The position numbers and the translations under genes were made by a program. From positions 10,195 to 74,194 of the forward strand of contig CANRGA010000001.1 of NCBI GenBank assembly GCA_947630055.1: DNA of 64,000 nucleotides, given 5' to 3'. This DNA is from an uncultured Bacilli bacterium. GTDB taxonomy: Bacteria > Bacillota_I > Bacilli_A > RF39 > UBA660. The notes under the pieces were generated by a model. The model saw nothing but the letters and a program-made list of their open reading frames with translations. It was not told the DNA's origin and did no database searches. Positions 12,080 through 36,416 of the stretch are shown one piece after another; positions within the stretch are counted from its first letter, which is position 1; each line of letters starts with the position of its first letter.

Positions 12080-12089
12080 GTGATATAAA

Positions 12090-12551
12090 ATGCGCGAATC
12101 AATAGGAACTCAAACAATTTTTAAAGCTGTCTTGATTTTCACTTTTTTATTTTCTGGCTTTATTGCAGTTGCAATAACATATAATAAAGCCTTTAAATTA
12201 AAAAATGAGACTATTAATATTTTAGAAAAATATGAAGGCGTTAATAAACAATCTTTAACTATCATTAATAACTATTTGAATCAAAATGGTTATTCTACTA
12301 AAAATCCTTGTGATACCACTGAATATGGAGTAGCAGATTTAAAAAATCCAACATATGAAAAAAGTAATCCTAATAGTAGGTATTATTATTGTCTTTCTTC
12401 TGAGGTAAAAAATAATCAAATATTTTATGGTATTAAATTATTTTCAAGATTTAATTTACCTATAATTGGAGATTTATTCTATTTTAGAGTTACTGGAGAG
12501 ACAAAAGGTATTAAATTATATGATAATAAACAAAGATTAGAAAATAATTAG
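12090..12551 (+). CDS. TadE/pseudopilin-like minor pilin candidate (paralog)
   Basis: MRESIG|TQTIFKAVLIFTFLFSGFI. The C-terminal motif (FNLPIIGDLFYFRVTGETK) parallels the preceding ORF (LDIPFVKDLFEFNVMGSTK). Confidence 0.45.
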   Translation: MRESIGTQTIFKAVLIFTFLFSGFIAVAITYNKAFKLKNETINILEKYEGVNKQSLTIINNYLNQNGYSTKNPCDTTEYGVADLKNPTYEKSNPNSRYYYCLSSEVKNNQIFYGIKLFSRFNLPIIGDLFYFRVTGETKGIKLYDNKQRLENN

Positions 12552-12563
12552 GGAGATGTGAAT

Positions 12564-13735: not shown

Positions 13736-13800
13736 TACTGGATAATTTTGCTATATTGTGGTATTATATGAAACAATTGATTTTGAAGGGGTGTTTTGTT

Positions 13801-16800: not shown

Positions 16801-19800
16801 TCAAAAGCTTTAATGACTTGTCATGAAGTAACTTTAAAGGGTTATACTTCATCTGGTGAAAAAGAACTTAAAGTTAGTGCCATCATTTTAAATAATGGTA
16901 AAGTTATAACTTTAGATAAAGAAGTAACTATTGAAGTATTAAAAGATATACCAAAAATAACTGATTATAAATATTCTATTAATGATAATAGTATTAAAAT
17001 TACTTTAGCTAATAAAGATAGTGATTCATCTTTAGATGGTGATTTACAAGTTAAAGTTACTGATGATACAGGGAAAGAACTTTATAATAGTAAATATCAA
17101 GAGACAATTGAGTTTAAAAAGAATAAAGATGCTTTAAGATATTATATTTCTGTTATAGGTAGTTATGATAGAGATATTGATAAACAAGAAGATAGTGAAA
17201 ACTATAATAAAGATATTAAATTATTAGATGAAACTATTTCTCTAGATAAAAATAATATTGAATTAAAAGATATTACTTATATAACCTTATATAAAGAAGA
17301 AAATGATAAAATATTAGAGATTAGAGAAATAACTAAAGAAGAATTAGAACAAAATATTGAAAAATATTTTGTCGAAGTTAATATGGAAAATATGCCTTCT
17401 GTTTATGCTAAACTTAAAAAAGTTACTATTGAAGATAATCATTTAATGCTAATTTTAGATTATGAATATGTAACTAAAGAAGAAAGTAAATCTAAAGAAA
17501 TCAAAGTTGATTATGGGGCTATAATTAATGGTAAAGCAAAAAATGAAACTAATCCATTAAATGAATTTAATATCTTAAAAGAAAGAATTAAAAATAATGA
17601 ACATATCATTTTAACTCATGATTATGATTTAAAAGATATTGAAGTTACTACAAGTTATTATTTTGAAAACTTTAGTGGTTCAATTGATGGTAATGGTCAT
17701 AAAATAACTAATTTAAGTAAACAATTATTTAATGAACTTAGTAATGCGGAAATTAAAAATTTAATAGTAGAAAATGCTAATATAAGTGGTGCTGTTCGTG
17801 GTATTTTAGCCGATAAAGGTACAGATGTAGTAATTAATAATGTTCATTTATATAATGGTAATATTAAAGCTAATCTTGTTACTAATGGAACTGGTATTAT
17901 GTTTGGTGAAACAAGAAATAGTATAGAAATATCAAATTCATCAATTGTAAATAGTTCAGTTAGTGGTGGCAAAAGAACTGGTGGCTTTATTGGTCAAGCT
18001 TATAATAAAACAACGATTACTAATAGTTATATCAATGATAGTAGTGTAACTGGTAATAATGACGCTATTGGTGGCATTATTGGCGAAGTAAGTAGTGCTA
18101 ATAATGTTTCTATGACTAATTGTTATAGTAAAGTTACTATGGATGGTGGTGCTGGTAATGCTAAAGCTGGTATTTTAGGCTATACTAATAGTAGCGGTGC
18201 AACTAAATTAATTAATAGTTTAAGTATGTCTCAAGGAAATAGTGGTACGAGAGTATATGGTAATGGTATCTCTGCTACTAATGTCTATGAGTTAAAAGAA
18301 TCTACTATGAGATCGCAAGCTGGTGGCCAAATTAAAGAAATAACTGGTAATGATATTAATAAAGAATTCTTTATTAATTCATTAAATTGGGATGAAGAAG
18401 TGTGGAATTTAGATAATGTATCAGCTGATGTACCTCCTATTTTAAAAGGCGAAAAATTTGAGCCTGTGAAAAGCCCAATAGAAGCTGAAGATGGTTATGA
18501 TCCAAATAAAAGAATACTTTATAATAACTTAATGAAATTAATGCCTTTCTATGATAGTGAAAAAATAGTTAGAACTGGTATGCATATTACTGATAATAAT
18601 TTACTTAATAAAGAAATTCAACATATTGTGCCAATTGATAATAAAGGAAGTATTGTTACATATTTAACAAGTGATAATTTAAAGAAAATAAGTAAGATAA
18701 AAGTAGTATATAAAACGAAAGAAAAAGTTACTTATGATGTAAAATTTGATAATACTTATGATATGGTAGCAAGTTATCGTATACCTGATTTAAATATCGA
18801 TTATACTTATAACCATTATATTATTGATGCTAACTCTCAAGTAGTAAATAATATAACTAATTATTTAAAAGATTTAAGTTATACAAATAATTTAGATACT
18901 TTAACTGCTACTAAAGATAGTAGAATATTAAGAGATTTCTATAATGATGTTACTAGTAAAGAATTAAAAGAATTTACTTTAAAATATTTATCTAATAGTA
19001 ATTATACTAATACCACTAACAATGATAGTATTAATAGTCATTTGGAAAGTGAAATTAAAAAAGATAAAAAAATTGAAAAAGTATTATATATGTATAATTA
19101 CTTTAGAAGATTCTATGATGTTGAAATAGATGGTATGAAATTATATGATTTTATGCTATTTAACATGAATGGTTTTGATGAATCATTAACAAGCCAAATG
19201 ATAGCCCGTATTTATTTACAAGATGGTAATAACTTTAACACTGGTTCAACTGGTACTAAATATCGTGATTTACTAGGGGGTTATACTAAACTTAATACTA
19301 TTGCCAAATTCATCGAATATATGGTAACTGAATTTAGTAATGATAATATGAATGATTGGGTAAGGAAAGAATTTGCAGGTTACTTAGTAGAAATTCCAGT
19401 TAAAGGTCATGAAAAAGACATTCAATATACTTTATGGGATCACTTTAGTAATGAAGATGCTGTTTATAATAATCCACATAGAGCATATGATATGATGTTA
19501 CCAATTTTAACATTGCCAAAGAATGCAGCTTATATAATTTCTACGCCAGTTCAATTTATCATCGGGGCGCAAAGAAGTTATATTGAAGATCCAGAAGATC
19601 CTACTTCTCAAAGTATTTTCCAAAGAAGAGTTAAAAGCTACGCTAAGAGAATGGAAACTTATTTTGATACAGCTTATAAAATTTTAGGCGATGCAAAATA
19701 CTTTAATGATATTCATACTTTCCAACTTGATAAAAGATTTGCTTATGATGAAAATGGCGCAATGGTATATCAACAAGCCTATGTTACAGAGGAGCCATTC

Positions 19801-21174
19801 CATAAGAACTTTAATGAAGTAACTGGTCGTTGGCAAACAAGTGATGGTAATGCTGCTGTTGCTTGGGGAGATCGTATTGACTGGAGTGCAGAAGGTTTAA
19901 TGGATGGTAATATTGATCCAGATTTAGTTAGTGTTTTAAATAAACAAATTCAAGAATATACTTATCATACCTTTACGCATGAAACAGCCCATAATATTGA
20001 TGCTAGACTATTCTTAAAAAATAATGGTAGAAGATTTGATGCTGGAGGAGAAGATTATGCTGATAGTAATCTAATGCAATCTTTTGGACCAAATGATATA
20101 GTTATGAATTTATCAACTTATCGTAATGGTGAAAAAATTGCTTCAAATTATACTCCAGATCGAATTAACTCACCAGAAAAAATTCAAAGTTACTATGATA
20201 AAGTATTCCAAACTATCTATGTAATGGATTATATTGAAGCAGAGGCTTTCTTACAACTTCCTAAAGAAGTTCAAGCAAATTTAGCAGTTCAAGTATCTTA
20301 TCCAAATGAAAATTTACAATTTGAAACTTTAGAAGATGGTAAAACTTTCACTGGACCAACTTATAAAGAAGATCCTTATGCTATTTTTAGAGCCCGTCAA
20401 ACATCAAGATTTACTCAATTAAGTGAAATACCAGATGTATTTAATCAAATGAAACTTACATCAATTAATGATTTAATTGATAATCATATTATGATTTATC
20501 CGGGTATTTATAAAGTAGGATCTAGAGGGTCTAACTCTTATGGCGGTGAAGGCATTGGTCATGTTCACTGGTATCAACCATGGAATCCAGAAGGAAGACC
20601 TGATTCATACGCAATTAAATGGATTGCTTATGAAATGCTTGGTTTAAAAGGATATGATGAAGGTTATATTGAGTATTATAGTAATATAAATTCAACACCA
20701 AGAGAAATTTATAAAAACTTATCTAAGCCTAAAGAAGGTAAATCAACCGTTAATTATAAAACTGATTCTATGGCATTAAGTAGAATAACTGAAGGTAGAT
20801 TTGATGATTTTGATAAGTATAAGAAATATCGTTTTGCAGAAACTAAAGCAAAATTAGATAAACTTAATGCCAAAGTTAATGTAAAACAATATGTTCAAAA
20901 ATTATATGATGCTTTACTTGAAGATAATGAATATTCTAAAACAAGATTAGAATCATTACTTCAAGCATATAAAACTGATGAAAAAGGTTGCTTAGGTAGT
21001 TATTGGTGTGCCAGAGGAATATCTGGTGAAGTTAGAGGTTTCTTAAAAAGTACTGCTGTAAGACAAGAAATATATTATACTTTAAAAGATTTAACAAATG
21101 ATTTTGAAGGTGAAATATTTGAAAAAACTACTCAACAAAATGTCAGCGATTTAACTGTTAATAAAGGTGAATAA
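13801..21174 (+). CDS. Giant surface Zn-metalloprotease, ZmpA/B/C (peptidase M26)-like, with cohesin-like and dockerin-like modules
   Basis: Signal peptide MKYAKYKYIFMLFLVIIFLPFKVMA, with RBS GAAGGGG 9 nt upstream. Cohesin-like N-domain and two TM helices. EF-hand dockerin-like DVNNDGVKDYND / DVNNDGKIDIND. Multiple Ig-like repeats. GLUG-type motifs (GGFIGQAYN.., IGGIIGEVS). HExxH site HTFTHETAHNID. Confidence 0.75.
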   Translation: MKYAKYKYIFMLFLVIIFLPFKVMAKNINLDIDKYDLTIGDEITVSVSLPDEIKAYAVMATFTYDENVFTKIDIDDFSILNKNLNISYNDNTKKFGLINETGKLDNELFQVHLKVKENANVGDTNIALTNIVVSDGTKKEEYNKTIKTILVTRDAKPGEEIPINKSNKVEESKEIETKVFTSKPFMITLGISAIVILGLVIYITLFKKDKKTLKNILVGCATILTISFVVIYIFNINKRDVNNDGVKDYNDAKEILKYLLDITGTEEIDNNKNTSNKKPSINPNNKYDVNNDGKIDINDVGNNTENVTENTKVILKEKNDNKDFYVKKGDITLKFTAEITPKNVTITKVKINNKYYDVINNNGEYSVTIESNKAGKYEFAITSVILSNGKEINVKLKFVREVLKVTPYVNKFNLNDEKGSLSFELVDPEDAFISGEVTVYDGEKVIVKENVKSTTKINDIPIDEDKIYRLEVMGEYDLDSNKNDDNNHFTNQTMFNHSFMIGGDYNFTLTDVGITDAIKKGEKPVISFKSTNTKGVTVENASLTIGNKTNNYVISKIDGDNYEVILEDADTSVGKHKVNLDSVRLKSLKTFNNKKDYDANTLTYTVLKDSPKVTSLNVEEDSENKSIIAKFSINDESSAISSLKVVLVDSTGAVIASQILTREEYLEKGEVSLSYDGSTDGNYKVKILADYALSDQYNYTDKPIGEEAITVNTGVYIEAIEYVETKQNNRVIDSGKFASKGQKMYRMNFIVHTKGIRSYSRLSSITINGLNYIANGGASAIENAEGEYRYTSTVAITVPKEAGIMTITANRVQLEVNSYNYKVNQFYHVPDVSKEYEVLKDIPSIANLKIQKEDYEAKEVTFNFDVIDKEDSFISGKLELNGKSEEINKGNNTVTFTGIETDKVHDLIFKADYKLSTGEIEDPINQTEKSNAEIYKVKYGLYKEDTYNDIKISEITPVSEKNNKYFEKNEDIKLNLIIVGIPEYLNVYPERVIINDKEYDSKALMTCHEVTLKGYTSSGEKELKVSAIILNNGKVITLDKEVTIEVLKDIPKITDYKYSINDNSIKITLANKDSDSSLDGDLQVKVTDDTGKELYNSKYQETIEFKKNKDALRYYISVIGSYDRDIDKQEDSENYNKDIKLLDETISLDKNNIELKDITYITLYKEENDKILEIREITKEELEQNIEKYFVEVNMENMPSVYAKLKKVTIEDNHLMLILDYEYVTKEESKSKEIKVDYGAIINGKAKNETNPLNEFNILKERIKNNEHIILTHDYDLKDIEVTTSYYFENFSGSIDGNGHKITNLSKQLFNELSNAEIKNLIVENANISGAVRGILADKGTDVVINNVHLYNGNIKANLVTNGTGIMFGETRNSIEISNSSIVNSSVSGGKRTGGFIGQAYNKTTITNSYINDSSVTGNNDAIGGIIGEVSSANNVSMTNCYSKVTMDGGAGNAKAGILGYTNSSGATKLINSLSMSQGNSGTRVYGNGISATNVYELKESTMRSQAGGQIKEITGNDINKEFFINSLNWDEEVWNLDNVSADVPPILKGEKFEPVKSPIEAEDGYDPNKRILYNNLMKLMPFYDSEKIVRTGMHITDNNLLNKEIQHIVPIDNKGSIVTYLTSDNLKKISKIKVVYKTKEKVTYDVKFDNTYDMVASYRIPDLNIDYTYNHYIIDANSQVVNNITNYLKDLSYTNNLDTLTATKDSRILRDFYNDVTSKELKEFTLKYLSNSNYTNTTNNDSINSHLESEIKKDKKIEKVLYMYNYFRRFYDVEIDGMKLYDFMLFNMNGFDESLTSQMIARIYLQDGNNFNTGSTGTKYRDLLGGYTKLNTIAKFIEYMVTEFSNDNMNDWVRKEFAGYLVEIPVKGHEKDIQYTLWDHFSNEDAVYNNPHRAYDMMLPILTLPKNAAYIISTPVQFIIGAQRSYIEDPEDPTSQSIFQRRVKSYAKRMETYFDTAYKILGDAKYFNDIHTFQLDKRFAYDENGAMVYQQAYVTEEPFHKNFNEVTGRWQTSDGNAAVAWGDRIDWSAEGLMDGNIDPDLVSVLNKQIQEYTYHTFTHETAHNIDARLFLKNNGRRFDAGGEDYADSNLMQSFGPNDIVMNLSTYRNGEKIASNYTPDRINSPEKIQSYYDKVFQTIYVMDYIEAEAFLQLPKEVQANLAVQVSYPNENLQFETLEDGKTFTGPTYKEDPYAIFRARQTSRFTQLSEIPDVFNQMKLTSINDLIDNHIMIYPGIYKVGSRGSNSYGGEGIGHVHWYQPWNPEGRPDSYAIKWIAYEMLGLKGYDEGYIEYYSNINSTPREIYKNLSKPKEGKSTVNYKTDSMALSRITEGRFDDFDKYKKYRFAETKAKLDKLNAKVNVKQYVQKLYDALLEDNEYSKTRLESLLQAYKTDEKGCLGSYWCARGISGEVRGFLKSTAVRQEIYYTLKDLTNDFEGEIFEKTTQQNVSDLTVNKGE

Positions 21175-21353: not shown

Positions 21354-22313
21354 ATGAAAGGCAAAATTATGACAGAAGAAAAAATATACAACGAAATAGT
21401 TGAGTTAATTGAAGAAAGAGAAGTAAAAAAGTTTGTTAGAGAATTTAAAGAAAATTCAGAAACATTAAAAACTAATTGGGAGATAGGTAGATTACTAGTT
21501 AATGCTCAAGGTGGAGAAGCTAGAGCAAAATATGGTGAAAATCTAATTAAGAAATGGGGCGAAAAATTATCTTTAGAATATGGTAAGAATTATAATAAAA
21601 GAAATCTTATGTATTATAGACAATTTTACTTAACATTTCAAAATGTGAACACAGTGTGTTCACAATTTAGTTGGTCAATATGTAGATGCTTATTATCAAT
21701 AAAAAATGAGAATGAGAGAAACTATTATATAAATCAAGTAATACTTAATAATTTATCTGTTAGAGAGTTAAGAAATGAAATAAAAAGTAAAGCCTTTGAT
21801 AGATTATCTTATGCAGATAAAAATAACATTAAGTTAATAACAGAGAATAATAATTCAATAACATTAAGTGATATGATAAAAGATCCGATAATTATTAAAA
21901 CTGATAAAGATACAACTAATTTAACTGAACAAAAATTACATGAAATATTAATTGAGTTAGTTGAAAATCATTATATGGAATTAGGAGCAGGTTTTGCTTT
22001 AATAGGTCATGAATATAAATGCAAAATAGATAATAGAACTTATAAAATAGATTTATTATTCTTTAATTATAAAATAAATGCCTTTGTTGTAGTAGAAGTG
22101 AAGATAAAAGAATATAATCCAAAAGATAGAGGGCAAATAGAATTATATATGGATTATGTTGATAAAAATATAAAAGAAAATTATCATAATAAAACAGAAG
22201 GTATATTAGTAGTTAGAGAAAAGAATAAACTAGTTACTAAATATATTTCTAATAATAATTTATATATTACTACTTATTTATTAGAAAATAAAAAAGTACA
22301 AAATGGCAAATAA
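21354..22313 (+). CDS. DUF1016/YhcG-family PDDEXK nuclease-like protein (copy D, intact)
   Basis: Full-length paralog of copy A: GRLLVNAQGGEARAKYGENLIKKWGEKLSLEYGKNY ... IDLLFFNYKINAFVVVEVKIKE. Confidence 0.8.
   Translation: MKGKIMTEEKIYNEIVELIEEREVKKFVREFKENSETLKTNWEIGRLLVNAQGGEARAKYGENLIKKWGEKLSLEYGKNYNKRNLMYYRQFYLTFQNVNTVCSQFSWSICRCLLSIKNENERNYYINQVILNNLSVRELRNEIKSKAFDRLSYADKNNIKLITENNNSITLSDMIKDPIIIKTDKDTTNLTEQKLHEILIELVENHYMELGAGFALIGHEYKCKIDNRTYKIDLLFFNYKINAFVVVEVKIKEYNPKDRGQIELYMDYVDKNIKENYHNKTEGILVVREKNKLVTKYISNNNLYITTYLLENKKVQNGK
21640..21668. repeat. Palindrome inside DUF1016 copy D
   Basis: aaaatgtgaacaca-g-tgtgttcacaattt. The 10-bp core arms are perfect; there is one mismatch in the outer arms. 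Encodes NVNTVCSQF. Confidence 0.9.
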
Positions 22314-22397: not shown

Positions 22398-22763
22398 ATG
22401 TTATTAGGAGCTACATTTTGTACTGATACTGCAAATATATGGCATTTAGTTGGTATGGTAGTTTATATTTTAAAAATTGTTATTCCACTTGTATTAATCA
22501 TTTTAGGTATGCTTGATTTAGGGAAAGCTGTTGTTTCAAGTGATGAAAAAGCTATTAATAAAGCAGTTGGTACATTAATAAAAAGATTTATTGCAGCAGT
22601 TGTAGTATTCTTTGTTCCTACTATAATTAATGGAATTTTTGGAGTAATTGGTGTAATTGGTGGAAGTTCAAAAGATGATTACCAAGTATGCGTTAGATGT
22701 GTTACTCAAACTTGTGAAGCAGAAGCAGAAGCAGCAAGACAAAGCATCGGCTTTACTCAATAA
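22398..22763 (+). CDS. VirB2/TrbC-like two-TM protein (core-only paralog P1)
   Basis: Contains ..IVIPLVLIILGMLDLGKAVVSSDEKAINKAVGTLIKRFIAAVVVFFVP.., a module shared with the C-termini of the ORFs at 22873, 24153 and 25714. C-terminal Cys cluster. Confidence 0.45.
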   Translation: MLLGATFCTDTANIWHLVGMVVYILKIVIPLVLIILGMLDLGKAVVSSDEKAINKAVGTLIKRFIAAVVVFFVPTIINGIFGVIGVIGGSSKDDYQVCVRCVTQTCEAEAEAARQSIGFTQ

Positions 22764-22847
22764 TTTTTAGTAATTAATGTGTATAGAAAATAGTGTCAAC
22801 AAAGTTAACACTATTTTTTTGTTTTAATTTAATATTTACAATAACCA

Positions 22848-22856
22848 TGTTATAAT
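22848..22856 (+). promoter_or_regulatory. Extended -10 element (TGtTATAAT) upstream of P2
   Basis: The aataaccatgNtataatttag block is duplicated at 24121-24140. Confidence 0.4.
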
Positions 22857-22872
22857 TTAGGTGGGTGAGTCT

Positions 22873-23970
22873 ATGAAAAAAAATAAAGCAATAGCTATAT
22901 TTTGTTTGTTATTTATGATTTTAATAGTTTTTGCAATATGCTCATCTGTATATTTAAGTAAAAGAGAAAATAATAAAGATATAATCATTTTAGCAGCAAA
23001 TAAAAATTATGGTTTAACTAAGGAACAAGTAGAACAAGAATTAAATAAAATGAAATCTACTCCAACTTATGATGAATTAGTATCATTAGCTAAAAGAAAA
23101 TATGGAATGAGTGAAGATGTTTTTCAAGTGGTTTTTGGTTGGGCAATTGGTGAAGGCTATGATAGTCATGATCATTATCTAGGTTACTTATGCGATAATG
23201 TTGGAATTAATCATTATATGGGGTATGGAAAAACTACTGCTAGTTCCTTAGCTGCATCAATAGCCGGAAGAGATAGTAGTGGCTATTATTCAACAAGTAG
23301 GATGCAAGGAAGATCTATTTCTGCTAAAAATAATCCTGGAAGCTATGTAGCAGCTTATAAAGGAATGTATTTAGCTTTGAAATATCCTGAAGAGAATGCA
23401 CATGATTGTGATGGTGTATCAAACTATAGTGGATATGGAGGTCAAAAAATTTATTCAGCAGTAGTTGGAAGATATACAATAAATGTATGGTCTGTTTGGT
23501 ATGATGGCATAAAGCATTGGAACTCTGATGGTAAATATTCTGATAGTAAAGGTGGAATAAAAGGTGCCAAAAAAGAAGAAGTGCTTGTAACATTAAAAGA
23601 CAAAGATCCACGTATAGATTATGCTGATTTATGTAAATCAAAAGGTTTTAGAATGGGTTCTAAAATAGCAGGTATAGTTATATTGGTAGTAAAATGGTTA
23701 ACGCCAATGATATTAATAATACTTGGGATGACAGATTTTACTAAAGCAATGGTTTCAAATGAACAAGATTCATTAGGAAAGGCGACAAAAACATTTATAA
23801 TAAGAATGATGATTGCAATAATGCTACCATTTATTCCAGGACTTATGTATTATTTAGTTGATTATTTTATTGGCGATTTAAAGGATGAAGCCGGGGAACT
23901 TGTATCATGTACTGAATGTCTTAAAGATCCTTTTAGTTGTGTAGTTGAATTGTATGACAATAATAATTAA
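22873..23970 (+). CDS. VirB2-like module fused to a ~270-aa secreted N-terminal domain (P2)
   Basis: Signal anchor MKKNKAIAIFCLLFMILIVF. C-terminus KIAGIVILVVKWLTPMILIILGMTDFTKAMVSNEQDSLGKATKTFIIRMMIAIMLPFIPG...SCTECLKDPFSC. Confidence 0.5.
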   Translation: MKKNKAIAIFCLLFMILIVFAICSSVYLSKRENNKDIIILAANKNYGLTKEQVEQELNKMKSTPTYDELVSLAKRKYGMSEDVFQVVFGWAIGEGYDSHDHYLGYLCDNVGINHYMGYGKTTASSLAASIAGRDSSGYYSTSRMQGRSISAKNNPGSYVAAYKGMYLALKYPEENAHDCDGVSNYSGYGGQKIYSAVVGRYTINVWSVWYDGIKHWNSDGKYSDSKGGIKGAKKEEVLVTLKDKDPRIDYADLCKSKGFRMGSKIAGIVILVVKWLTPMILIILGMTDFTKAMVSNEQDSLGKATKTFIIRMMIAIMLPFIPGLMYYLVDYFIGDLKDEAGELVSCTECLKDPFSCVVELYDNNN

Positions 23971-23989
23971 AAAAGTTTGAGGTGATAAA

Positions 23990-24070
23990 ATGGAAAAAAA
24001 TAAAGCGATAGCTATATTTTGTTTATTATTTATTATATTAACTATTTTTGCAACAATTTCTATTATATAA
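23990..24070 (+). pseudogene. 26-codon remnant duplicating the signal-anchor of P2
   Basis: MEKNKAIAIFCLLFIILTIFATISII* compared with MKKNKAIAIFCLLFMILIVFAICSS; has its own GAGGTG RBS. Confidence 0.6.
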
Positions 24071-24127
24071 TAAGTGTTAAATGCCTTTACAGTTTTATTT
24101 AATTTGTTTTATTATTTAAAATAACCA

Positions 24128-24136
24128 TGATATAAT
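24128..24136 (+). promoter_or_regulatory. Extended -10 element (TGaTATAAT) upstream of P3
   Basis: Duplicate of the block upstream of P2. Confidence 0.4.
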
Positions 24137-24152
24137 TTAGTTAGGTGTTAAT

Positions 24153-24875
24153 ATGAAAAAAAATTGGAAATTATTAGTATTTTGTTTGATTATTATGTTT
24201 TTTATTAATTGTAATATTGCTATTGCGGATTCATCTTGTGATAAATATGCCACACATAATGAAGAAATATGTAATTATGAATCATCAACTTCAGGAGAAG
24301 CAGTATGTAGATGTCTTTATGATTTGAATAAAACTAATGAAACTACTTGTGATAGAGGCTATACAAATAATGTATTAAACATATGTGAGGCTTCATTTCC
24401 AACAACATATGATTTTTCAAAAACGCCGGTAGAAAATAATCCATCTAATACAAATAATACTGAGAGCGATGATACTATTAAAGGATCTAGTGATAGTGCT
24501 GGAAATCCTACAATAGGCGATAGTGGTCCAAGATTGGAATATAATAATTTATGTGAATCAGAAGGATTTAAAACAGGATCTAAAATAGCAGGTATAGTTA
24601 TATTGGTAGCAAAATGGTTAACACCACTTGCATTAATGATATTAGGAATGATAGATTTTTTCAAGGCAGTTATATCGAGTAATGAAAAAGCACTAAGTGA
24701 CGCTACGACTACTTTTATAAAAAGAATAGTAATAGCAATTATTGTTCCATTTGTACCTGGTTTGTTATTTTATTTAGTTGATTTTTTTATCGGTGACGAA
24801 ATTGCAGATACTAAAGTTGAATTTGGCTCATGTACGGAATGCTTAAAGGATCCTTTAAATTGTACAATTAAATAA
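24153..24875 (+). CDS. VirB2-like module fused to a ~140-aa Cys-rich secreted N-terminal domain (P3)
   Basis: Signal peptide. C-terminus KIAGIVILVAKWLTPLALMILGMIDFFKAVISSNEKALSDATTTFIKRIVIAIIVPFVPG...SCTECLKDPLNC. Confidence 0.5.
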   Translation: MKKNWKLLVFCLIIMFFINCNIAIADSSCDKYATHNEEICNYESSTSGEAVCRCLYDLNKTNETTCDRGYTNNVLNICEASFPTTYDFSKTPVENNPSNTNNTESDDTIKGSSDSAGNPTIGDSGPRLEYNNLCESEGFKTGSKIAGIVILVAKWLTPLALMILGMIDFFKAVISSNEKALSDATTTFIKRIVIAIIVPFVPGLLFYLVDFFIGDEIADTKVEFGSCTECLKDPLNCTIK

Positions 24876-24890
24876 TAATAGAGTTGTTTA

Positions 24891-25619
24891 ATGAAAAATT
24901 TTTTACTTAATAGTAATGAAAAATATATTATAAAATTATTTGGTTTTTGGCACATATTTTTAATGCTATTTATATTATGTGTAGTTTATTTTATTGTAAA
25001 AAATAAGAGTAAATTAATTAATTTGAATAGTAAAAAAAAGAAAAAAATAAGAATAGTATTTACGATTATTTTGATTTTGAATTTGTTTATAAGAAGAGGA
25101 GCATTTTTAATTTACAATGTATATGATTTCCACTTTCATTTAGATATAAATATTTGTAATTTTTTAAATATTATTTATATTATATATGGTTTAACGGGAA
25201 ATTCAAAAATATATCCTATTTGTTTTTATTTGAGTTTTGTTGGACCTTTTATAGCTATTCTATTTCCCTGTATTAATTTTAGTGTTTTAAATTATTCATT
25301 TTATTCATTTTTAATTACTCATCATTTTGTTTTTATTTTTAATTTCATTTTTCTTTGTTTTGAAAATTACAAATATATTAGCAAAGATTTTAAAAACATA
25401 TTTCTATTTTTAACAATCTATTTTTTTATTGTTTATTGTTTTAATTATATTTTTAATACTTCATATTTATTACCATTTGAATTTGTCAACAATGATTTAT
25501 TAACAAATGGATTTATTAATTATATATATCATTCTAGAATATTAATTTATTTCATATATTTTTCATTTATTTTTAGTTTATTATTTTTAAGTAGATCAAT
25601 TTTAAAAAAAATAAATTAA
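24891..25619 (+). CDS. Polytopic membrane protein (YwaF/TIGR02206-like?)
   Basis: About 7 predicted TM helices and very Phe/Ile/Leu/Asn-rich. The N-terminal FGFWHIFLMLF resembles the F..H start of the YwaF family. Weak call. Confidence 0.3.
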   Translation: MKNFLLNSNEKYIIKLFGFWHIFLMLFILCVVYFIVKNKSKLINLNSKKKKKIRIVFTIILILNLFIRRGAFLIYNVYDFHFHLDINICNFLNIIYIIYGLTGNSKIYPICFYLSFVGPFIAILFPCINFSVLNYSFYSFLITHHFVFIFNFIFLCFENYKYISKDFKNIFLFLTIYFFIVYCFNYIFNTSYLLPFEFVNNDLLTNGFINYIYHSRILIYFIYFSFIFSLLFLSRSILKKIN

Positions 25620-25713
25620 TAATATATAAATTATGTAATAAAAATTAGTAGTATTTTCAAAAAATATATGCTAAAATAAAAATATAAATAATAAAGATGT
25701 TAGGAAGATTTCT

Positions 25714-26574
25714 ATGAAAAAAACAGTTAAGTTTATATTTTTATTTGTTTTAATTTATATATTTCCTTTTGTTGTTGTAAATGCAGGCGGAAAAAGTGAT
25801 GATAGTATTAATAATAATGCTAATGTTTCAAGTAATGAACCAGCAAAACCTTTAACATGTGTATATGGCCCCTCAGGAAAAACATATTATAGATTAATTC
25901 AAACAGCAGATGGACAAATAAATTTACAAATGTCGCATGTTGATAATATTAATTATACAGATATGTCTTCACAAAATTGGGGTGGAGATAGAACAACTGC
26001 AAGTAGCCAAACAATTTTAAAGAAAACTAAAAATTTTGAACAAACTTCAAAATATGTTAATGGTCATTTAACAGGATGTCCAGAATATTTACTTGATTAT
26101 GGTTGTGATAAACATCCTGTTAAGTGTGTTAATGTGTATTTTACTGATGAAAAAGAAGGAAATGATAGAGCAAATTCATATGATTTGATTTCGTATTTGC
26201 CAAAAGTTTTTGAAACTGAGAGTGTTCCAAACTATTTTAATGATCCAAGTTCTTCATATGAAGGATTAGAACCAATAACTGAATGTACTGCATTGTTAGG
26301 TGATCCTGGTACAGATGGAACTCCAGCATTTTATTTAGTAAAAGCTTTTCATGTGATAAAATATGTTGCGTTAGTATTATTAATTGTCTTATCAGTTATA
26401 GATTTTACAAGTGCGACAGCAAAACAAGATAAAGATGCAATGGCAAAATTGTTAAAAAAAATTATGATGAGATTCATTTTATGTATAATAATATTCTTAT
26501 TGCCATATTTAGTTAAATTATTGTTAAAATATTTGGTTTCTAGGCAAACTGATTTATGCAAAGGCAATTGGTAA
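25714..26574 (+). CDS. VirB2-like module fused to a ~190-aa secreted N-terminal domain (P4)
   Basis: Signal peptide MKKTVKFIFLFVLIYIFPFVVVNA. C-terminus VALVLLIVLSVIDFTSATAKQDKDAMAKLLKKIMMRFILCIIIFLLP. Own TGcTAAAAT extended -10 at 25669-25677. Confidence 0.45.
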   Translation: MKKTVKFIFLFVLIYIFPFVVVNAGGKSDDSINNNANVSSNEPAKPLTCVYGPSGKTYYRLIQTADGQINLQMSHVDNINYTDMSSQNWGGDRTTASSQTILKKTKNFEQTSKYVNGHLTGCPEYLLDYGCDKHPVKCVNVYFTDEKEGNDRANSYDLISYLPKVFETESVPNYFNDPSSSYEGLEPITECTALLGDPGTDGTPAFYLVKAFHVIKYVALVLLIVLSVIDFTSATAKQDKDAMAKLLKKIMMRFILCIIIFLLPYLVKLLLKYLVSRQTDLCKGNW

Positions 26575-26588: not shown

Positions 26589-28862
26589 ATGTTTTTATTA
26601 GGTATATTTGATGAAGCACTTGTTGGTATTGAACTTTTTGTAGTAACTCAATTATATAAAGTTGCTGCAAATGTTTTTAAAATATTTATGATTTTGGCTC
26701 AAAGTGACTTTTTAGAACAAATTGATTATGGTACATTATTGTCTAATTTTTATGTAATTATCGGATTAATTATGCTTTTTATAATGGCTTTCGCTTTATT
26801 AAGGGGAATAATTAATCCTGATGATCAAAAGCAAGGAACAACTGTAGTAAAAAATGTTATAATTAATTTTGTTTTGTCATGTGTATTATTAGGATTTTTA
26901 CCAACAATATTTCCTTTTATGTTTGATTTGCAAGATTCAATTTTAAGATACAATGTTATTGGTGGCTTTTTTGGTTATGGAAGACCGGGTCAAAAATTAA
27001 GTAATTCTGAAAATGTAAACGAAGTTGAATCAAGTTCATATAGAATGGTAAATGGTATATTTACGGCATTTTTTAATGTAAGTAATTCTTTTTGCGATAG
27101 CGTTGATTCAAGTAGTAGTAATAAATTTGAAGAATTAACAAATTGTCAGAAAGAATTGAAAGTTGATCCTTTAGAGATAAATGGCTATGAAGAAAATGAT
27201 AAAGATAATTTTTATGAATATGCTAAACATGTTGATGGAACTGCTGATTTTGGAGTTTATGCTGCGTTTATTGAGGCAGCTTCAAATAATGAAGTTGATT
27301 TTGGCTTTTTCATGCTATTAATTTCAGGAGTATTATTAATATATGTAGGAGTTTCATATTGTTTTGATATGGCATTAAGGTTAATTAAATTAATTTTTTA
27401 TCAAGCGATTGCTCCGATTCCAATATTTTTGAGAATTATTCCTAATAGCAAATTTAGCGGTACATTTAATCAATGGTTGAAAGTTACTTTAACATGTTGG
27501 ATGGAAGTGTTTGTTAGAATATTTATTTTTAGTTTCTGTATGTGGTTATGTCGCGCAATGCAAAGCACAAATTTTTTATCAAGCGAAGTTTATGAATATG
27601 GTAGATTAGCTGGTTTATTAACAAAAGCGTTTATTTTGATGGCTATTGTTATGTTTATGAAAAGATCACCTAAATTATTATCAGAAGTAACAGGAATTGA
27701 TTCTGGAAATATGAAACTTGGCATTAGAGAAAAATTAGCAGATGGTGGTGGCTTTATTGCTGGAGCTGCAGTTGGTGGCCTTGCAACAGCTGGTATTCGA
27801 AATACGGTTGGTGCAGTTAGAAGAACCAGAGAAGCCTATAAGGAAGCTGCTGCTAATAATGCTGGTCGTTGGAAAAAAGCAGGCATAATTGCAAGAGGCG
27901 TTGGTGGCGGTGCATTATCATTCATCGGCGGTGCTGGTTCGGGGGCTTTTAGATCTGGAAGAAGTGCTGTCGGAAAAAAATCTTTTAAAGATGCAGGAGC
28001 AGCTATAACATCAGGGGCAAATGCAGCAACACAAGCGGGTGAAAGAAGGAGAAACTATCGTGCTGAACATGGTGGCTTTTTTGGAGCAATTGGTGGTCAT
28101 GCAAAAGATGCTGTACATGGAGTTGGTGGATATTTTGGTATAGGTGCTAACGAAACAAAAATGGGCTTTTATAATACAGCTGCCCAAACATCAGATGCTA
28201 TTAATTCTGCATCAGAAGGTACGTATAAAAATAAAAAAGAATATCAAGATCAAAGTTCAATTGTTAAGAGACTTGGTGCTGAATATAATGAAGGAATAAG
28301 TAACAGAAAACGCGATATTGAAGAATTACGTATGAAAATGGAAGAAGCAAATAACAGAGGAGATATTGCATCTGCAGCAGCTTTTTCTGAAAGAATGGCT
28401 AAAGCAACTGAAGATTTAAAAGCATTTACTGAATCTTCAAGTGTTAAATTAGAATTTGATAAACAAACTCATGTACTTGAAGAATTACGTAAAGATTTAT
28501 CAAAAAGCAAGACAGATATACTTGCTACTGCTGCAACTAGAATTGGCGTAGATCAAAAAACTAATTATGTAAATGATAAAGAACTTGCATCATCATTTAA
28601 AAGTGCAATTGTTGATGCATTTCATGGTGCTATAGATGCTAGTGGAAATATAAGTGGTATTTCAGGAAATAATTTGAATATTGTAAATGCAATGTTAAGT
28701 GGTAAAGAAATTGATAAAAACTGGATTGATAGAGATAATTTAATCTTTGTTCAAGATGCAATTGATAACATAAATGTTGGTAGACAAAATGTTAAAGGTG
28801 CAAAAGAAAGAGAATATATTGTTGCATCTGGTAATAAACAATCTAGTAAAGATTCGAAATAA
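26589..28862 (+). CDS. VirB6/TrbL-like polytopic T4SS channel protein with Gly/Ala-rich and coiled-coil C-terminal region
   Basis: At least 6 TM helices in the first ~370 aa, then GGGFIAGAAVGGLATAG..GGGALSFIGGAGSGAF, then a charged helical tail. Lies directly upstream of the VirB3/VirB4-like genes. Confidence 0.55.
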   Translation: MFLLGIFDEALVGIELFVVTQLYKVAANVFKIFMILAQSDFLEQIDYGTLLSNFYVIIGLIMLFIMAFALLRGIINPDDQKQGTTVVKNVIINFVLSCVLLGFLPTIFPFMFDLQDSILRYNVIGGFFGYGRPGQKLSNSENVNEVESSSYRMVNGIFTAFFNVSNSFCDSVDSSSSNKFEELTNCQKELKVDPLEINGYEENDKDNFYEYAKHVDGTADFGVYAAFIEAASNNEVDFGFFMLLISGVLLIYVGVSYCFDMALRLIKLIFYQAIAPIPIFLRIIPNSKFSGTFNQWLKVTLTCWMEVFVRIFIFSFCMWLCRAMQSTNFLSSEVYEYGRLAGLLTKAFILMAIVMFMKRSPKLLSEVTGIDSGNMKLGIREKLADGGGFIAGAAVGGLATAGIRNTVGAVRRTREAYKEAAANNAGRWKKAGIIARGVGGGALSFIGGAGSGAFRSGRSAVGKKSFKDAGAAITSGANAATQAGERRRNYRAEHGGFFGAIGGHAKDAVHGVGGYFGIGANETKMGFYNTAAQTSDAINSASEGTYKNKKEYQDQSSIVKRLGAEYNEGISNRKRDIEELRMKMEEANNRGDIASAAAFSERMAKATEDLKAFTESSSVKLEFDKQTHVLEELRKDLSKSKTDILATAATRIGVDQKTNYVNDKELASSFKSAIVDAFHGAIDASGNISGISGNNLNIVNAMLSGKEIDKNWIDRDNLIFVQDAIDNINVGRQNVKGAKEREYIVASGNKQSSKDSK

Positions 28863-28884: not shown

Positions 28885-29205
28885 GTGAATAATTATTTAA
28901 TACCAGCAAATACAAAGAAATCACAATTAATGTTAGGTTTTTTTACCCCATTGGATTTAGCTATATTTGCAATTGGTTGCTTATGGACACTTATTATGGT
29001 ACTTTTGATAAAAAGTATTAATATGCTTGTTTTAATTCTAATATTATTACCAGCATTAATATCGGCGTTTTTGGTAATGCCAGTACCTCATTATCATAAT
29101 GTATTGCAATTACTAACAAATATTTTCAACTTTTATACAAACAGAAGACGATATTATTGGAAAGGATGGAGTATGTATGAAGAATTCGGAACAAGCGATA
29201 AGTAA
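28885..29205 (+). CDS. PrgI/VirB3-like small membrane protein
   Basis: 106 aa with two TM helices. N-terminus IPANTKKSQLMLGFFTPLDLAIFAIG is typical of PrgI-family proteins that precede VirB4. GTG start after GAAGGAGG. Confidence 0.55.
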   Translation: MNNYLIPANTKKSQLMLGFFTPLDLAIFAIGCLWTLIMVLLIKSINMLVLILILLPALISAFLVMPVPHYHNVLQLLTNIFNFYTNRRRYYWKGWSMYEEFGTSDK

Positions 29206-29740
29206 TCCTAAATTTACAAGCACTTGGTTGCCAATTAGGCAAATAATGAATGGAATGATTCAACTTGATGACGGTACTTATGTAACAGGAGTTAAAATAC
29301 ACCCTAAAAATATATTTATTATGGGTTCACAAGCGCAAGATAATATGATTTATAGTTTACGAAATTTCTATAATACAATAGATTATGAATTCTGGCTTAT
29401 TATTGCGGATCGTCCAGTTGATATTAATTTATATTTAGCAGAATTACAAAAGTTATATAATAATTCTTCTAGTAATGAAGTAAGAAAATTGATTTTGCAA
29501 GATATTAATAAAGCTAATCAATTTATGAGTATTGAATATAATGTTGTTGATACTGAATATTATTTAATATTCCAAGAGAAAAAATTAGAAATTTTACAAA
29601 AAAAATTACATAATATGATAAGTGGACTTGCAAATTGTGGATTACAATCAAGTCAAACAAGTAATGCTGACTTAAGAATTATTTTAGATAATCTTCTTAA
29701 TGGCGGCGAAGCAATTAATTTTGGGACGGTGATGAGCTAA
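29177..29740 (+). CDS. VirB4-like ATPase, N-terminal part encoded as a separate ORF
   Basis: TSTWLPIRQIMNGMIQLDDGTYVTGVKIHPKNIFIM matches the canonical start of Gram-positive VirB4 (ConE/PrgJ/Orf16-type). Ends in a TAATG overlap with the next ORF. Confidence 0.6.
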   Translation: MKNSEQAISNPKFTSTWLPIRQIMNGMIQLDDGTYVTGVKIHPKNIFIMGSQAQDNMIYSLRNFYNTIDYEFWLIIADRPVDINLYLAELQKLYNNSSSNEVRKLILQDINKANQFMSIEYNVVDTEYYLIFQEKKLEILQKKLHNMISGLANCGLQSSQTSNADLRIILDNLLNGGEAINFGTVMS

Positions 29741-31527
29741 TGAGTAATGTAAAAAATGCTATAGCACCAAAAGGTATGGAATTTAAACCTACCGAATTTA
29801 GAATTAGTGGTAAATATTCTACTATTATTACTATTGTAACTTTTCCCAAAAATGTTTATGTAGGTTATTTATCAGATATAACTAATATTTCGGGAGTTAA
29901 AGTTGTTGTTAAACATATTCCAATTCAATTCCAAGTATTGCAAAAAATGATTAATAAGGAAATTGCAGATTTAAAGACAAGATATCAATCAGAGCATGAT
30001 CAAACATTACAAGAAAAAATTCGTCAAGATTATGAATCATTAGAGCAATTTATTAGTATGCTTGCTTCAACTGATGCTAGAATATTCGATTTTCAAATGC
30101 ATTTAATGCTTACTGCTGATAGTAAAGAAGAACTTGATAATAAAAGAATGGAAGTTAAAAGTTATTTAAATGCAATGGGTATGGCAGGCGTAGCTTTAAT
30201 GTTTGAACAAGAAAAAGTACTTAAAAGTATTGTGCCAATATTTCCACCTCAAGATATTGAGCAAAGAATTGGTACACCAATACCTTCAATTACTATTGCT
30301 GCTATGTATCCTTTTGTTTTTGATAGTATCAAAGATCCAGGATTATCATGTTTATTTGGCGTAGATTTCTCTGGTGGTGTTGTATTATTTAATCAATTCT
30401 TGTATCAAATAAGAAAAGAAAATAATCGTAATAATGCTAATATTATTTTACTTGGTACATCAGGAAGTGGTAAATCAACGGCTGCTAAACTTTTGCTTCG
30501 AACTCATTTACGTAATGGTTGCAAAGTTGTGGCAATCGATCCTGAAGGCGAACTAGGTGATATGACTGAACTTATGGGTGGAGATTTCTTAGACCTTGGT
30601 AAAGGTGGCCAATTTGGTATGATTAATCCACTTGAAATAGTAATGGATGTTGATGAAGAAGAAATATCTCAAGGCTTAGGATATACTGTTTTAACAAGAA
30701 CTCTTCAACAATTAAAAGCATTTATGAAGTATTATAATCCATCAATTGAAGAAGATGTTTTAACTCTTTTTAGTGAAGTAGTTCAAGATACGTATAAGAG
30801 ATTTAAAATTGATTTTGATACTGATTTTACTAAATTAACAAGAGATGATTATCCAACATTTGATGATGTTTATGCTACTATTCAAGGAAGACTTTTATCT
30901 ATGGTAGATGCAACTCATGAGCGAGATGTTATGGAAAGATTAGAATTAAAGGTACGACCTTTAGTCAAAGAATTAAGATATTACTTTACTGGTAAAACTA
31001 CCATTCAAATTCAAAGTGATTTTATTGTATTTAATATAAAAGAATTAATGAATAGTGATGAAAATATTAAAAATGCTTTATTCTTTAACATATTAAAATT
31101 TGCTTGGGGCTTATGTTTAGAGAAAGATGTTAATACAGTTATGATGGTGGATGAAGCTCATGTACTTCTTGCCACTCATAATGAACTTGGAGCAGAATTT
31201 TTAGCTCAAATTCAAAGACGTAGTCGTAAATATAATACTGGTACGATAATAATTACCCAACAACCAACTGATTTCGCAGCTCCATCTGTTATTCAACATG
31301 GTAAGGCTATTTTTGATAATGCTTCTTATTATCTAGTAATGGGCCTTCGTAAACAAGCGGTTGAAGATTTAGCTCAATTAATTGATTTAAATGAAAGTGA
31401 AAAAGAAGGAATAAAATATTATCCACAAGGCCAAGGATTATTTATCTGTGGTAATAGAAGAATGCGTATTAATGTTGTTGTTACTCAAGAAGAACTAGAT
31501 TCATTTGGTTCTGGTGGTGGCTATTAA
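29740..31527 (+). CDS. VirB4-like T4SS ATPase, C-terminal part with NTPase domain
   Basis: Walker A GTSGSGKST, Walker B VMMVDEAHVLL. N-terminus IAPKGMEFKPTEFRISGKYSTIITIVTFPKNV continues the VirB4 pattern. Confidence 0.85.
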   Translation: MSNVKNAIAPKGMEFKPTEFRISGKYSTIITIVTFPKNVYVGYLSDITNISGVKVVVKHIPIQFQVLQKMINKEIADLKTRYQSEHDQTLQEKIRQDYESLEQFISMLASTDARIFDFQMHLMLTADSKEELDNKRMEVKSYLNAMGMAGVALMFEQEKVLKSIVPIFPPQDIEQRIGTPIPSITIAAMYPFVFDSIKDPGLSCLFGVDFSGGVVLFNQFLYQIRKENNRNNANIILLGTSGSGKSTAAKLLLRTHLRNGCKVVAIDPEGELGDMTELMGGDFLDLGKGGQFGMINPLEIVMDVDEEEISQGLGYTVLTRTLQQLKAFMKYYNPSIEEDVLTLFSEVVQDTYKRFKIDFDTDFTKLTRDDYPTFDDVYATIQGRLLSMVDATHERDVMERLELKVRPLVKELRYYFTGKTTIQIQSDFIVFNIKELMNSDENIKNALFFNILKFAWGLCLEKDVNTVMMVDEAHVLLATHNELGAEFLAQIQRRSRKYNTGTIIITQQPTDFAAPSVIQHGKAIFDNASYYLVMGLRKQAVEDLAQLIDLNESEKEGIKYYPQGQGLFICGNRRMRINVVVTQEELDSFGSGGGY

Positions 31528-34504: not shown

Positions 34505-34514
34505 GAGGAATATT

Positions 34515-35438
34515 ATGACAAAAAATAATCAAAAATTTGTTATTGTTTTAATTTTAATTTTATTAATACTTACTTCAATTATAGCAATATTTGTAAGTTT
34601 AAATATAAAAGATGATAATGATGATTCTAATACCCCAAATAGTAATATTCCTTCTAGTGAACCAATAATAAATAAAGAAATATCAAGATTAAAGGATACT
34701 GATGAATATTTCGCAGTGCAAAGTGCAATAAATAGTTTTTATGATAAAGTTTCTGCTAATGAGAAATCAGAAATTGTGTCTTTGTTAGATAGTAATTATG
34801 TTATCGAAAATAATATAACAAATGATAATGTTTTTGAAAAAATGAATTTGAGTACTTCTTTTATTAATTTTATTGTTGAAGAAATCTATTATAATGATAA
34901 TAGTAATATTACTTATTATTTTGTTAAAGGTTATGAAAATGAATATTTAATGGGAGAAGATGAATATGTAAAATACAATAAAAATTTGTTCTATCTTTTA
35001 GTAGTTGACACTAATAAACATTATGTGATAAAACCTTTAAATAATGTAAATAATTTAGAAGAATTTGCTAATAATTATGATATAAATGTAGTAACAATAA
35101 ATAATGATAGTAAATTTAAAAAAAGAGAAATAACTGAAGAAAAAAAAGTAACATCTTATATTACTAATTATACCAATTTAATATATTCTGATTCTGATAA
35201 AGCATATAAAATGCTAGACGATAATACTAAGAAAAATTATTTAAATTTGGATAGTTTTATTAATGATATAGATAATATAAGTGATAGATTATTTATTAAG
35301 ATTTGGTCAATAAACACTCAAGAAAATGAAGATAATATAGTTTATAAAGTTCAAAATCATAATGGTGATACTATAACTATAACAGAATATTACCCTAATG
35401 ATTATAAAATTGGCTTTAACTTTATAGAAGGAGAATAA
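34515..35438 (+). CDS. VirB8/TcpC-like membrane-anchored protein (paralog 1)
   Basis: N-terminal TM, a linker, then two NTF2-like-sized segments. The ATG at 34515 follows AGGAGG. Confidence 0.4.
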   Translation: MTKNNQKFVIVLILILLILTSIIAIFVSLNIKDDNDDSNTPNSNIPSSEPIINKEISRLKDTDEYFAVQSAINSFYDKVSANEKSEIVSLLDSNYVIENNITNDNVFEKMNLSTSFINFIVEEIYYNDNSNITYYFVKGYENEYLMGEDEYVKYNKNLFYLLVVDTNKHYVIKPLNNVNNLEEFANNYDINVVTINNDSKFKKREITEEKKVTSYITNYTNLIYSDSDKAYKMLDDNTKKNYLNLDSFINDIDNISDRLFIKIWSINTQENEDNIVYKVQNHNGDTITITEYYPNDYKIGFNFIEGE

Positions 35439-35440
35439 AT

Positions 35441-36358: not shown

Positions 36359-36416
36359 TATTAATTTATTTTTCCTTATATTTATAGTATAATATTGGTG
36401 AATTGGGGAGATTTGT

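Follow-up and report, generated by a model that had tools for sequence, protein, structure and literature searches.

Gram-positive type IV secretion systems (T4SSs) are said to have no VirB2 or pilin genes, with the exception of those in the Patescibacteria, and the Patescibacterial work leaves the origin of the VirB2-like arrays found there undecided: they either came with the monoderm T4SS or were borrowed (PMC12102498, PMC12857230). Here, we describe an array of four genes, P1 to P4, in a stretch of 64,000 nucleotides (hereafter the window; G+C ∼25%) of contig CANRGA010000001.1 from an uncultured Bacilli bacterium. All four genes lie on the forward strand and encode a common module, a hairpin of two transmembrane (TM) helices, to which three of them add a large extracytoplasmic domain, here called the head. 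We give a probability of roughly 45% to the reading that the hairpin is an anchor or docking module at a VirB6-like channel, and that it would display wall-cutting and contact domains outside a Gram-positive-type T4SS, with one class of these genes fixed and another variable.

The hairpin module and the four genes that carry it

A first-pass annotation had claimed that four genes share a C-terminal module with two TM segments. The open reading frames (ORFs) were as described, and the last ∼110 aa of P2, P3, and P4 aligned to nearly the whole of P1. In pairwise BLASTP comparisons of the shared C-terminal region, the E-values were 4e-15 (P1-P2), 1e-17 (P1-P3), 5e-7 (P1-P4), 1e-53 (P2-P3), 2e-7 (P2-P4), and 1e-4 (P3-P4), and P2 and P3 were also similar across the ∼25 residues preceding TM1. 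A family hidden Markov model (HMM) built from 28 diverse members recovered P1, P2, P3, and P4 at 2e-39, 3e-36, 4e-37, and 9e-23, respectively. None of the remaining ORFs in the window scored below 1e-3 with this HMM, and the N-terminus of a VirB6-like protein, encoded by the next gene, scored 1.1e-3. The motif proposed in the annotation agrees with the family consensus.

The four genes differ in what precedes the module. P1 (22398-22763, 121 aa) consists of the module alone, without a signal peptide, and has a conserved Cys in its N-tail and a CxxC...C pattern after TM2. P2 (22861-23970, 369 aa) is composed of an N-terminal hydrophobic helix, a head (aa 50-220; 23008-23520), a linker, and the module (HMM envelope, aa 250-362; 23608-23946), and its true start is probably the internal ATG at 22873, the position at which the database homologue P0001 begins. 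P3 (24153-24875, 240 aa) has a signal peptide, a Cys-rich head of ∼100 aa, a linker rich in N, S, and T, and the module (aa 126-239; 24528-24869). P4 (25714-26574, 286 aa) has a signal peptide, a head with a "CVY...CPEY" domain, and the module (aa 186-283; 26269-26562). By hydropathy, all four modules have two hydrophobic helices, and P2-P4 have a further hydrophobic segment at the N-terminus. Judged by eye, AXA-type cleavage sites lie between AIA and D in P3 and between VNA and G in P4, and the N-terminal helix of P2 may be an uncleaved anchor. In the AlphaFold2 (AF2) model of P2, the module forms helices at residues 261-299, 302-321, and 324-337; in that of P4, the hairpin (204-282) was predicted at a predicted local distance difference test (pLDDT) score of 82-89, whereas the head was poor.

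The anatomy of the module was read from an alignment of 348 module sequences. TM1 is preceded by a conserved Cys and contains a Lys at mid-membrane and a Pro; the loop reads D-F-x-K-A-x-x-S-x-D-x-K; TM2 opens with K or R and has a Pro within it; and C-x-x-C and a last Cys follow. The four Cys residues, one before TM1 and three after TM2, are each conserved in at least 96% of the sequences in which the column is present. The C..C pair that had been assigned to the shared module as a whole is therefore a family trait, but it is missing from P4, whose module has only two flanking Cys, one retained on either side of the hairpin. The mean number of K+R residues is 3.2 in the loop, to which the K/R pair opening TM2 is added (together ∼5), compared with 0.8 in the N flank and 1.6 in the C tail, which is acidic.

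Hydropathy, charge, the Cys positions, and both AF2 models (P2 and P4) thus agree on a two-helix hairpin with a short basic loop. Under the positive-inside rule, the basic loop would be cytoplasmic and both ends of the module would face outward. In this predicted topology, all four Cys residues would lie outside the membrane, where they could join the two ends, so a disulfide staple between the hairpin ends may be proposed from the sequences. Among family members, heads are attached to either end of the hairpin, as is expected if both ends share the outer side.

The array DNA includes repeated segments and one decayed gene copy. P2 and P3 share a 5' segment of 71-73 nt that covers the promoter, ribosome-binding site, and signal peptide (80-84% DNA identity) and a module segment of 287 nt (∼72% DNA identity), and the head DNA between these two segments is unrelated. 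A third copy of the 73-nt 5' repeat, at 23981-24053, is 84% identical to the start of P2 and opens a remnant of the same gene class as P2 and P3 (class B; 23990-24070, forward strand), in which 26 codons of signal peptide, MEKNKAIAIFCLLFIILTIFATISII, are followed by two stop codons. A near-identical metagenome contig (L001, 1130-2225) carries P2 as two ORFs of 295 and 73 aa, and this split is a frameshift or a sequencing error. The repeats, the decayed copy, and the split gene are consistent with heads that are gained, lost, and swapped between flanks that stay conserved, for which recombination would be the mechanism. In DNA this rich in AT, scanning for promoters was not informative (49 sites vs. 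53 expected).

Gene classes, heads, and T4SS genes in related loci

At E ≤ 1e-3, a profile of the four modules picked out 9014 of 1.84 billion cluster representatives. Approximately 170 top matches included 82 proteins with the module only, 69 with an N-terminal head, 12 with a C-terminal head, and 5 with tandem modules. For a survey of gene order, species-representative genomes were scanned with an alignment of seven P1-like sequences, which yielded 80 loci whose proportions, given this P1-like anchor, are no census. Nearly all of these loci come from gut or faecal metagenome-assembled genomes (MAGs), the majority labelled uncultured Bacilli; the other labels are Tenericutes, Mycoplasma sp., Erysipelotrichaceae, Bacillota, CAG:460, Muribaculaceae (five loci), "Candidatus Onthocola" (one), and "uncultured bacterium" (one).

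The loci contain one to six hairpin genes each, and their heads are extremely diverse, as the annotation would lead one to expect. It had called the four genes paralogs; they do form one family, but clustering of the modules separated three orthologous classes, A, B, and C, which occur in a fixed gene order and are not simple recent paralogues. Class A genes encode 107-146 aa and stand first in the array or in pairs, and P1 clusters with 112 such short, first-in-array genes. Class B genes, including P2 and P3, occupy the middle positions, bear heads, and have four Cys. Class C, to which P4 belongs, is always the last hairpin gene, immediately before VirB6, and it has two or three Cys and the signature C-x-S-L-L-G-x-P...P-A-Y-Y-L.

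The connection between head-bearing copies and T4SSs, another claim of the annotation, was strongly supported by the survey. Downstream sequence of 5 kb or more was present in 61 loci; of these, T4SS genes (VirB6, VirB3, or VirB4) followed in 19 of 21 head-bearing loci, compared with one of 40 loci that had short genes only (Fisher p = 1.4e-12). In the short-only loci, the hairpin genes terminate a Tad-like pilus operon, and uvrA, lgt, and gltX come next. Confinement to T4SS loci thus applies to the N-headed classes and not to the hairpin as such.

The presence of the pilus operon raises the question of whether the hairpins belong to the Tad-like filament system, as partners of its platform or as displayed cargo, with the T4SS merely adjoining it. 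Pilin-like or TadZ-like genes lie directly before the first hairpin gene in 61 of the 68 loci for which 4 kb or more of upstream sequence was present, and in common gut Bacilli the operon closes with two hairpin genes. However, anchoring the survey on class A inflates this link; three loci (L025, L073, and L076) have class B or C genes with VirB3/VirB4 and without pilus genes upstream; and the head-bearing classes follow the T4SS rather than the pilus operon. We therefore consider a Tad role quite improbable.

The 45 heads from the surveyed loci fell into 29 BLASTP clusters, which bears out the proposal of a common module with interchangeable extracytoplasmic heads. When 46 head-bearing proteins of these loci were searched with Pfam, none of the heads was recognized. 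The annotation had called the P2, P3, and P4 heads unrelated, and no BLASTP alignment was found among them; the P4 head is nevertheless not a singular one, as its "C-x-Y ... C-P" domain begins 15 of the 19 long class C heads. Within class C, the modules are 60-77% identical even where the heads cease to align. Elsewhere in the family, the heads recognized at the sequence level include Glucosaminidase, NlpC/P60, Peptidase_M15_4, C39-like, GsmA, and FlgJ-type domains, so wall hydrolases are a recurring cargo.

Structure prediction of the heads, which the annotation had suggested, was informative for P2. Its head was modelled as a confident helical domain (AF2 aa 51-220, pLDDT ∼70-97), and the best structural match of the model was the SleB catalytic domain, at 13% identity (SleB/CwlJ-type structures 4FET and 4F55), whereas searches with the P2 head against Pfam, PDB sequences, and Foldseek-PDB returned nothing significant. 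Residue E98, at a helix end within the motif "GWAIGEGY," is invariant in the family. This type of head occurs in both orders relative to the hairpin, and in P0011-P0014 the module comes first and the head last. One such permuted gene, in L092, adjoins a gene for a small acid-soluble spore protein (SSPI); from this neighbour it may be surmised that sporulation occurs in these Bacilli and that germination enzymes are the source of the P2-type head.

Relatives of the module and its proposed role

The clearest relative of the module at the level of sequence profiles is found inside the same locus, in the N-terminal hairpin of the VirB6-like protein. This polytopic protein of 757 aa is encoded at 26589-28862 on the forward strand and matches NCBIfam pLS20_p028 (E 6.5e-6); the hairpin at its N-terminus, which resembles the module, spans aa 34-123 (26688-26957). 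With hhalign, the comparison gave a probability of 78% (E 1.8e-5, 48 columns), whereas the VirB3 and VirB2 controls gave 0.1-0.2%, and the module HMM matched five VirB6 orthologues at E 3e-5 to 5e-4. Residues 49-107 of the window protein also match the pilin-like NCBIfam family Mbov_0395 (E 2.3e-3).

The annotation had described the module as VirB2-like, which held only in a loose sense. PF04956 (TrbC/VirB2) had no match in P1-P4 at E ≤ 1 or in 148 relatives at E ≤ 1e-3, and hhalign, within the limits of its sensitivity, led us to reject homology to canonical VirB2, with a probability of 0.07% for the module profile against eight annotated plasmid VirB2/TrbC proteins. On the other hand, P1 matched Pfam PF18895 (T4SS_pilin) with 21.6 bits (E 2.3e-4), below the gathering cutoff of 26.6 bits, and the same scan found no PF18895 in P2, P3, or P4. 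At E ≤ 1e-3, this family was found in 29 of 148 relatives (best 1.1e-7); it was matched in four of 46 head-bearing proteins from the surveyed loci, and a precomputed PF18895 label is attached to ∼20 of 120 class A homologues among the matches listed. From these scores, the module looks like a divergent fringe of the PF18895 family.

Proteins of Mycoplasma integrative and conjugative elements (ICEs) are the other group that the module recalls. P4 scored 14.5, 11.9, and 9.3 bits with NF045849, NF045889, and NF045848, for which the curated cutoffs are 40, 70, and 90. In the 148 relatives, at E ≤ 0.01, NF045889 (Mbov_0396) was found 22 times, NF045848 (MMCAP2_0566) 15 times, and NF045849 (Mbov_0395) three times, with a best value of 1.4e-4. 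These recurrent sub-threshold matches indicate no more than a distant resemblance. When PDB sequences were searched with the module profile and with the P2-family profile, the only matches were spurious ones to rhodopsin/GPCR proteins.

These affinities bear on whether the array encodes a polymer of the VirB2 type, a model put forward in the annotation, in which P1-like hairpins would leave the membrane and stack as a short tube or pilus that crosses the wall, and the class B and C proteins would form its tip or decoration with swappable heads. In the structures of the F- and T-pilus, both ends of VirB2-type pilins lie on the pilus exterior, and the size and predicted topology of the hairpin match those of such pilins. 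The weak matches to the T4SS_pilin family, the position of the array directly upstream of VirB6-VirB3-VirB4, and the tandem divergent VirB2-like arrays described for Patescibacterial T4SSs (PMC12102498, PMC12857230) point in the same direction. Against this stand the negligible hhalign score with canonical VirB2, the stand-alone genes for module-hydrolase proteins, and the location of most class A genes with a Tad-like operon that has no VirB4, whereas every known VirB2 pilus needs VirB4. Heads of 140-500 aa on every subunit would also be hard to pack in a lattice. Taken together, we regard a VirB2-type polymer as unlikely, although it deserves to be kept in mind.

Two further possibilities are that the proteins act in entry exclusion or immunity, or that they are holin-like membrane proteins fused to lysins. 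Small two-TM proteins beside transfer genes can be exclusion factors, and a hairpin joined to a wall hydrolase is loosely reminiscent of holin-endolysin pairs. However, P1-P4 had no PHROGs match (E ≤ 0.01), which makes a holin or phage origin unlikely; there are no phage genes in the locus; and Pfam and NCBIfam scans of P1-P4 and the scanned relatives found no holin, bacteriocin, or immunity family. The annotation had itself named a match to such a family, or C-termini that fail to align, as outcomes that would count against it, and neither was seen. Both explanations are highly improbable.

We propose instead that docking to the VirB6-like channel organizes the array. The array proteins would all be built on one cysteine-stapled two-TM hairpin with its ends outward and its basic loop in the cytoplasm, and this module may pack on the homologous N-terminal hairpin of the VirB6-like protein. 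Docking of this kind would put the heads in the wall zone immediately outside the T4SS, where the P2 head could cut peptidoglycan locally and the Cys-rich heads of P3 and P4 could contact the wall or a partner cell. Class C would then be the fixed component and class B the variable set, with diversity created by head swapping between the conserved 5' flank (promoter and signal peptide) and the conserved 3' flank (module).

Several observations weigh against this proposal. The hhalign match of 78% is moderate and spans only the loop and TM2 of the module. The model of the P4 head is unusable (pLDDT < 50). The survey was anchored on P1-like genes from a single clade of gut Bacilli MAGs, and it favours class A; class A genes, in turn, mostly close a chromosomal Tad-like operon without a nearby T4SS. 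Finally, permuted genes, in which the hairpin is followed by a SleB-like head, stand alone amid housekeeping genes (L092, 5644-6630; L093, 6012-7127). Since class A and permuted genes occur outside T4SS loci, the hairpin is not specific to T4SSs, and the array could consist merely of co-travelling wall or surface proteins.

In its simplest form, this objection holds that the hairpin is a generic anchor that tethers wall hydrolases and surface proteins in this clade, and that the position of the array is historical, without a role in the T4SS. The permuted module-SleB-like proteins among housekeeping genes, the class A pairs that close the chromosomal pilus operon before uvrA and lgt, and the ordinary wall hydrolase domains on many family members are all consistent with such an anchor. 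It does not readily account for the skew of N-headed copies toward T4SS genes (19/21 vs. 1/40), for the constant position of class C, with its highly conserved module, immediately upstream of VirB6, or for the resemblance of the VirB6 N-terminal hairpin to the module, and we assign it only a minor share of the probability. Were it nevertheless correct, the value of the finding would be more modest, yet the hairpin would even then represent a previously undescribed family of anchors, used for surface enzymes by abundant uncultured gut bacteria. A large unannotated architecture is also defined, a hairpin with a swappable ectodomain that comprises thousands of sequence clusters. This architecture might account for the way in which wall-bound bacteria bring lytic and contact functions to a mating channel.

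The wider locus and comparison with known systems

The genes downstream of the array form a T4SS block on the forward strand. The VirB6-like gene is followed by a gene for a VirB3-like (TcpE/PrgI) two-TM protein (28885-29205; Pfam TcpE E 1.2e-4, PrgI E 5.7e-4) and by a VirB4 ATPase encoded as two ORFs (29177-29740 and 29740-31527), of which the end of the first and the start of the second have one base, 29740, in common. The two VirB4 pieces match NCBIfam Mbov_0397 at E 3e-15 (profile positions 99-276) and E 4e-106 (294-891), and this Mycoplasma ICE VirB4 profile runs through the VirB3-like gene (2-97) and both pieces. The split is kept across ∼20 T4SS-bearing loci and is therefore not an assembly error. 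The rest of the block, assigned with Pfam, extends from 31652 to 38636 and includes a 950-aa wall hydrolase with SpoIID, M23, and lysozyme domains; two paralogous single-TM proteins in the VirB8 position (34479-35438 and 35441-36358), each with its TM helix at the N-terminus, an ectodomain of ∼270 aa, and no match to a family in Pfam or PHROGs; and VirD4, the coupling protein (36417-38636). Among the window ORFs scanned, including those of the T4SS block, neither a relaxase nor an integrase family was recognized, and a megablast search of the 9.3-kb region against plasmids gave no match. Starting at 41.9 kb, most of the genes scanned have housekeeping functions typical of a chromosome (NusG, TypA, TyrS, and UppP). 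The system may therefore be a chromosomal T4SS without a relaxase, as is reported for Patescibacteria.

Inside the array, between P3 and P4, lies a gene for a polytopic membrane protein of the acyltransferase-like TMEM164 family (24891-25619, forward strand; Pfam PF14808, E 5.7e-18), which also matches TIGR02206, a TMEM164-related integral membrane acyltransferase family, below its cutoff (E 2.4e-11). Members of this family are also found inside the arrays of three surveyed loci (L004, L022, and L046). By analogy with TraX, which acetylates F-pilin, it might be speculated that this protein modifies the hairpin proteins.

Upstream of the array, a complete-looking Tad-like/type IV pilus operon occupies 2267-13544 on the forward strand. 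It encodes a 1274-aa protein, DUF5411, CpaB, an ATPase whose best scores are to VirB11/TrbB/TadA, two membrane proteins, three small pilin-like proteins that bear leaders of the form M[KR]E..G, and a TadZ-like protein. One or two class A genes close this operon in most of the related genomes. The mature part of the product of its first gene (2267-2980, forward strand, 237 aa) opens with "ACSYTEK" and ends in a TM anchor, and this "C-x-Y" opening recalls the front domain of the class C heads.

Two genes lie between the pilus operon and P1. The first encodes a 2472-aa surface protein (13756-21174, forward strand). Its last ∼900 aa matched PDB entries for streptococcal IgA1 proteases (E 3e-32), and its N-terminus, judged by eye, has dockerin-like DVNNDG repeats and a TM segment; a homologue at the equivalent position was found in locus L031 only. 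The second (21354-22313, forward strand) is one of three genes for YhcG/DUF1016 PD-(D/E)XK nucleases, one of them truncated, the other two being located at 89-1267 and 1457-2044 on the reverse strand. This nuclease family recurs at the edges of T4SS blocks and after class A genes in other MAGs (L007, L015, L016, L073, and L076), a pattern that may indicate either a repeated element or a hotspot of recombination at this junction. An IS605-family OrfB/TnpB gene with a Cas12f-like TNB domain is located at 59721-60905 on the forward strand.

Compared with described systems, the array shares features with several groups. Like TrbC/VirB2 pilins such as Agrobacterium VirB2, the module has two helices, a short basic loop, and ends predicted outside, and it is encoded just upstream of virB3/virB4. 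Unlike them, it has no sequence or profile similarity to that family, P1 lacks a long cleaved leader, P2-P4 are two to three times larger (240-369 aa), the Cys pattern is of the disulfide type in place of head-to-tail cyclisation, and class A genes are usually far from any VirB4. The module also weakly matches the N-terminal hairpin region of the Mycoplasma ICE proteins Mbov_0395, Mbov_0396, and MMCAP2_0566, which are encoded beside the ICE VirB4, and the VirB4 of the window is closest to this Mycoplasma family. The Mycoplasma proteins differ in having the hairpin near the N-terminus and a C-terminal extension, and neither the Cys signature nor head diversity is documented for them.

With respect to its head, P2 differs from the SleB/CwlJ cortex-lytic transglycosylases in its fusion to a membrane hairpin and in its T4SS locus, which replaces the germination context. 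It resembles the hydrolases of the VirB1 and PrgK/TcpG types, as a wall-cutting activity, putative in P2, is encoded in a T4SS locus to open peptidoglycan. Unlike those systems, however, the locus already has a PrgK-like hydrolase, the 950-aa protein, so P2 would be a second, hairpin-anchored enzyme of another fold. Our literature searches returned no hairpin-ectodomain fusions or arrays of this kind in Bacilli, and those for RF39 with T4SS and for monoderm VirB2 pili led only to PMC12102498 and PMC12857230.

A close parallel is with the Patescibacterial arrays (PMC12102498, PMC12857230). In both cases, tandem divergent genes for two-helix hairpins adjoin a monoderm-type T4SS (VirB3, VirB4, VirB6, and VirD4) that is chromosomal and has no recognizable relaxase nearby, weak PF18895 matches occur, and the hosts have reduced genomes that also encode type IV pili. 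Arrays of the Patescibacterial type are defined as 2-11 hairpin genes near virB4, and here four genes and a remnant precede VirB6-VirB3-VirB4. Unlike the Patescibacterial arrays, this one belongs to an uncultured gut Bacilli host, a signature of four Cys marks its module, the hairpin is not restricted to T4SS loci, and three of the four genes carry large ectodomains, for which term searches of the two papers returned no mention. That Bacilli have such an array coupled to a T4SS of the monoderm type bears directly on the origin of the Patescibacterial arrays. It is conceivable, if doubtful at present, that some Gram-positive-type T4SSs have a pilin-like layer, in which cysteine-stapled hairpins related to the N-terminus of VirB6 would gather around the channel or on top of it and form a wall-spanning stalk with exchangeable enzymatic and adhesive heads at its outer end, and that the array of gut Bacilli would be the counterpart or the source of the essential VirB2-like arrays of Patescibacteria.

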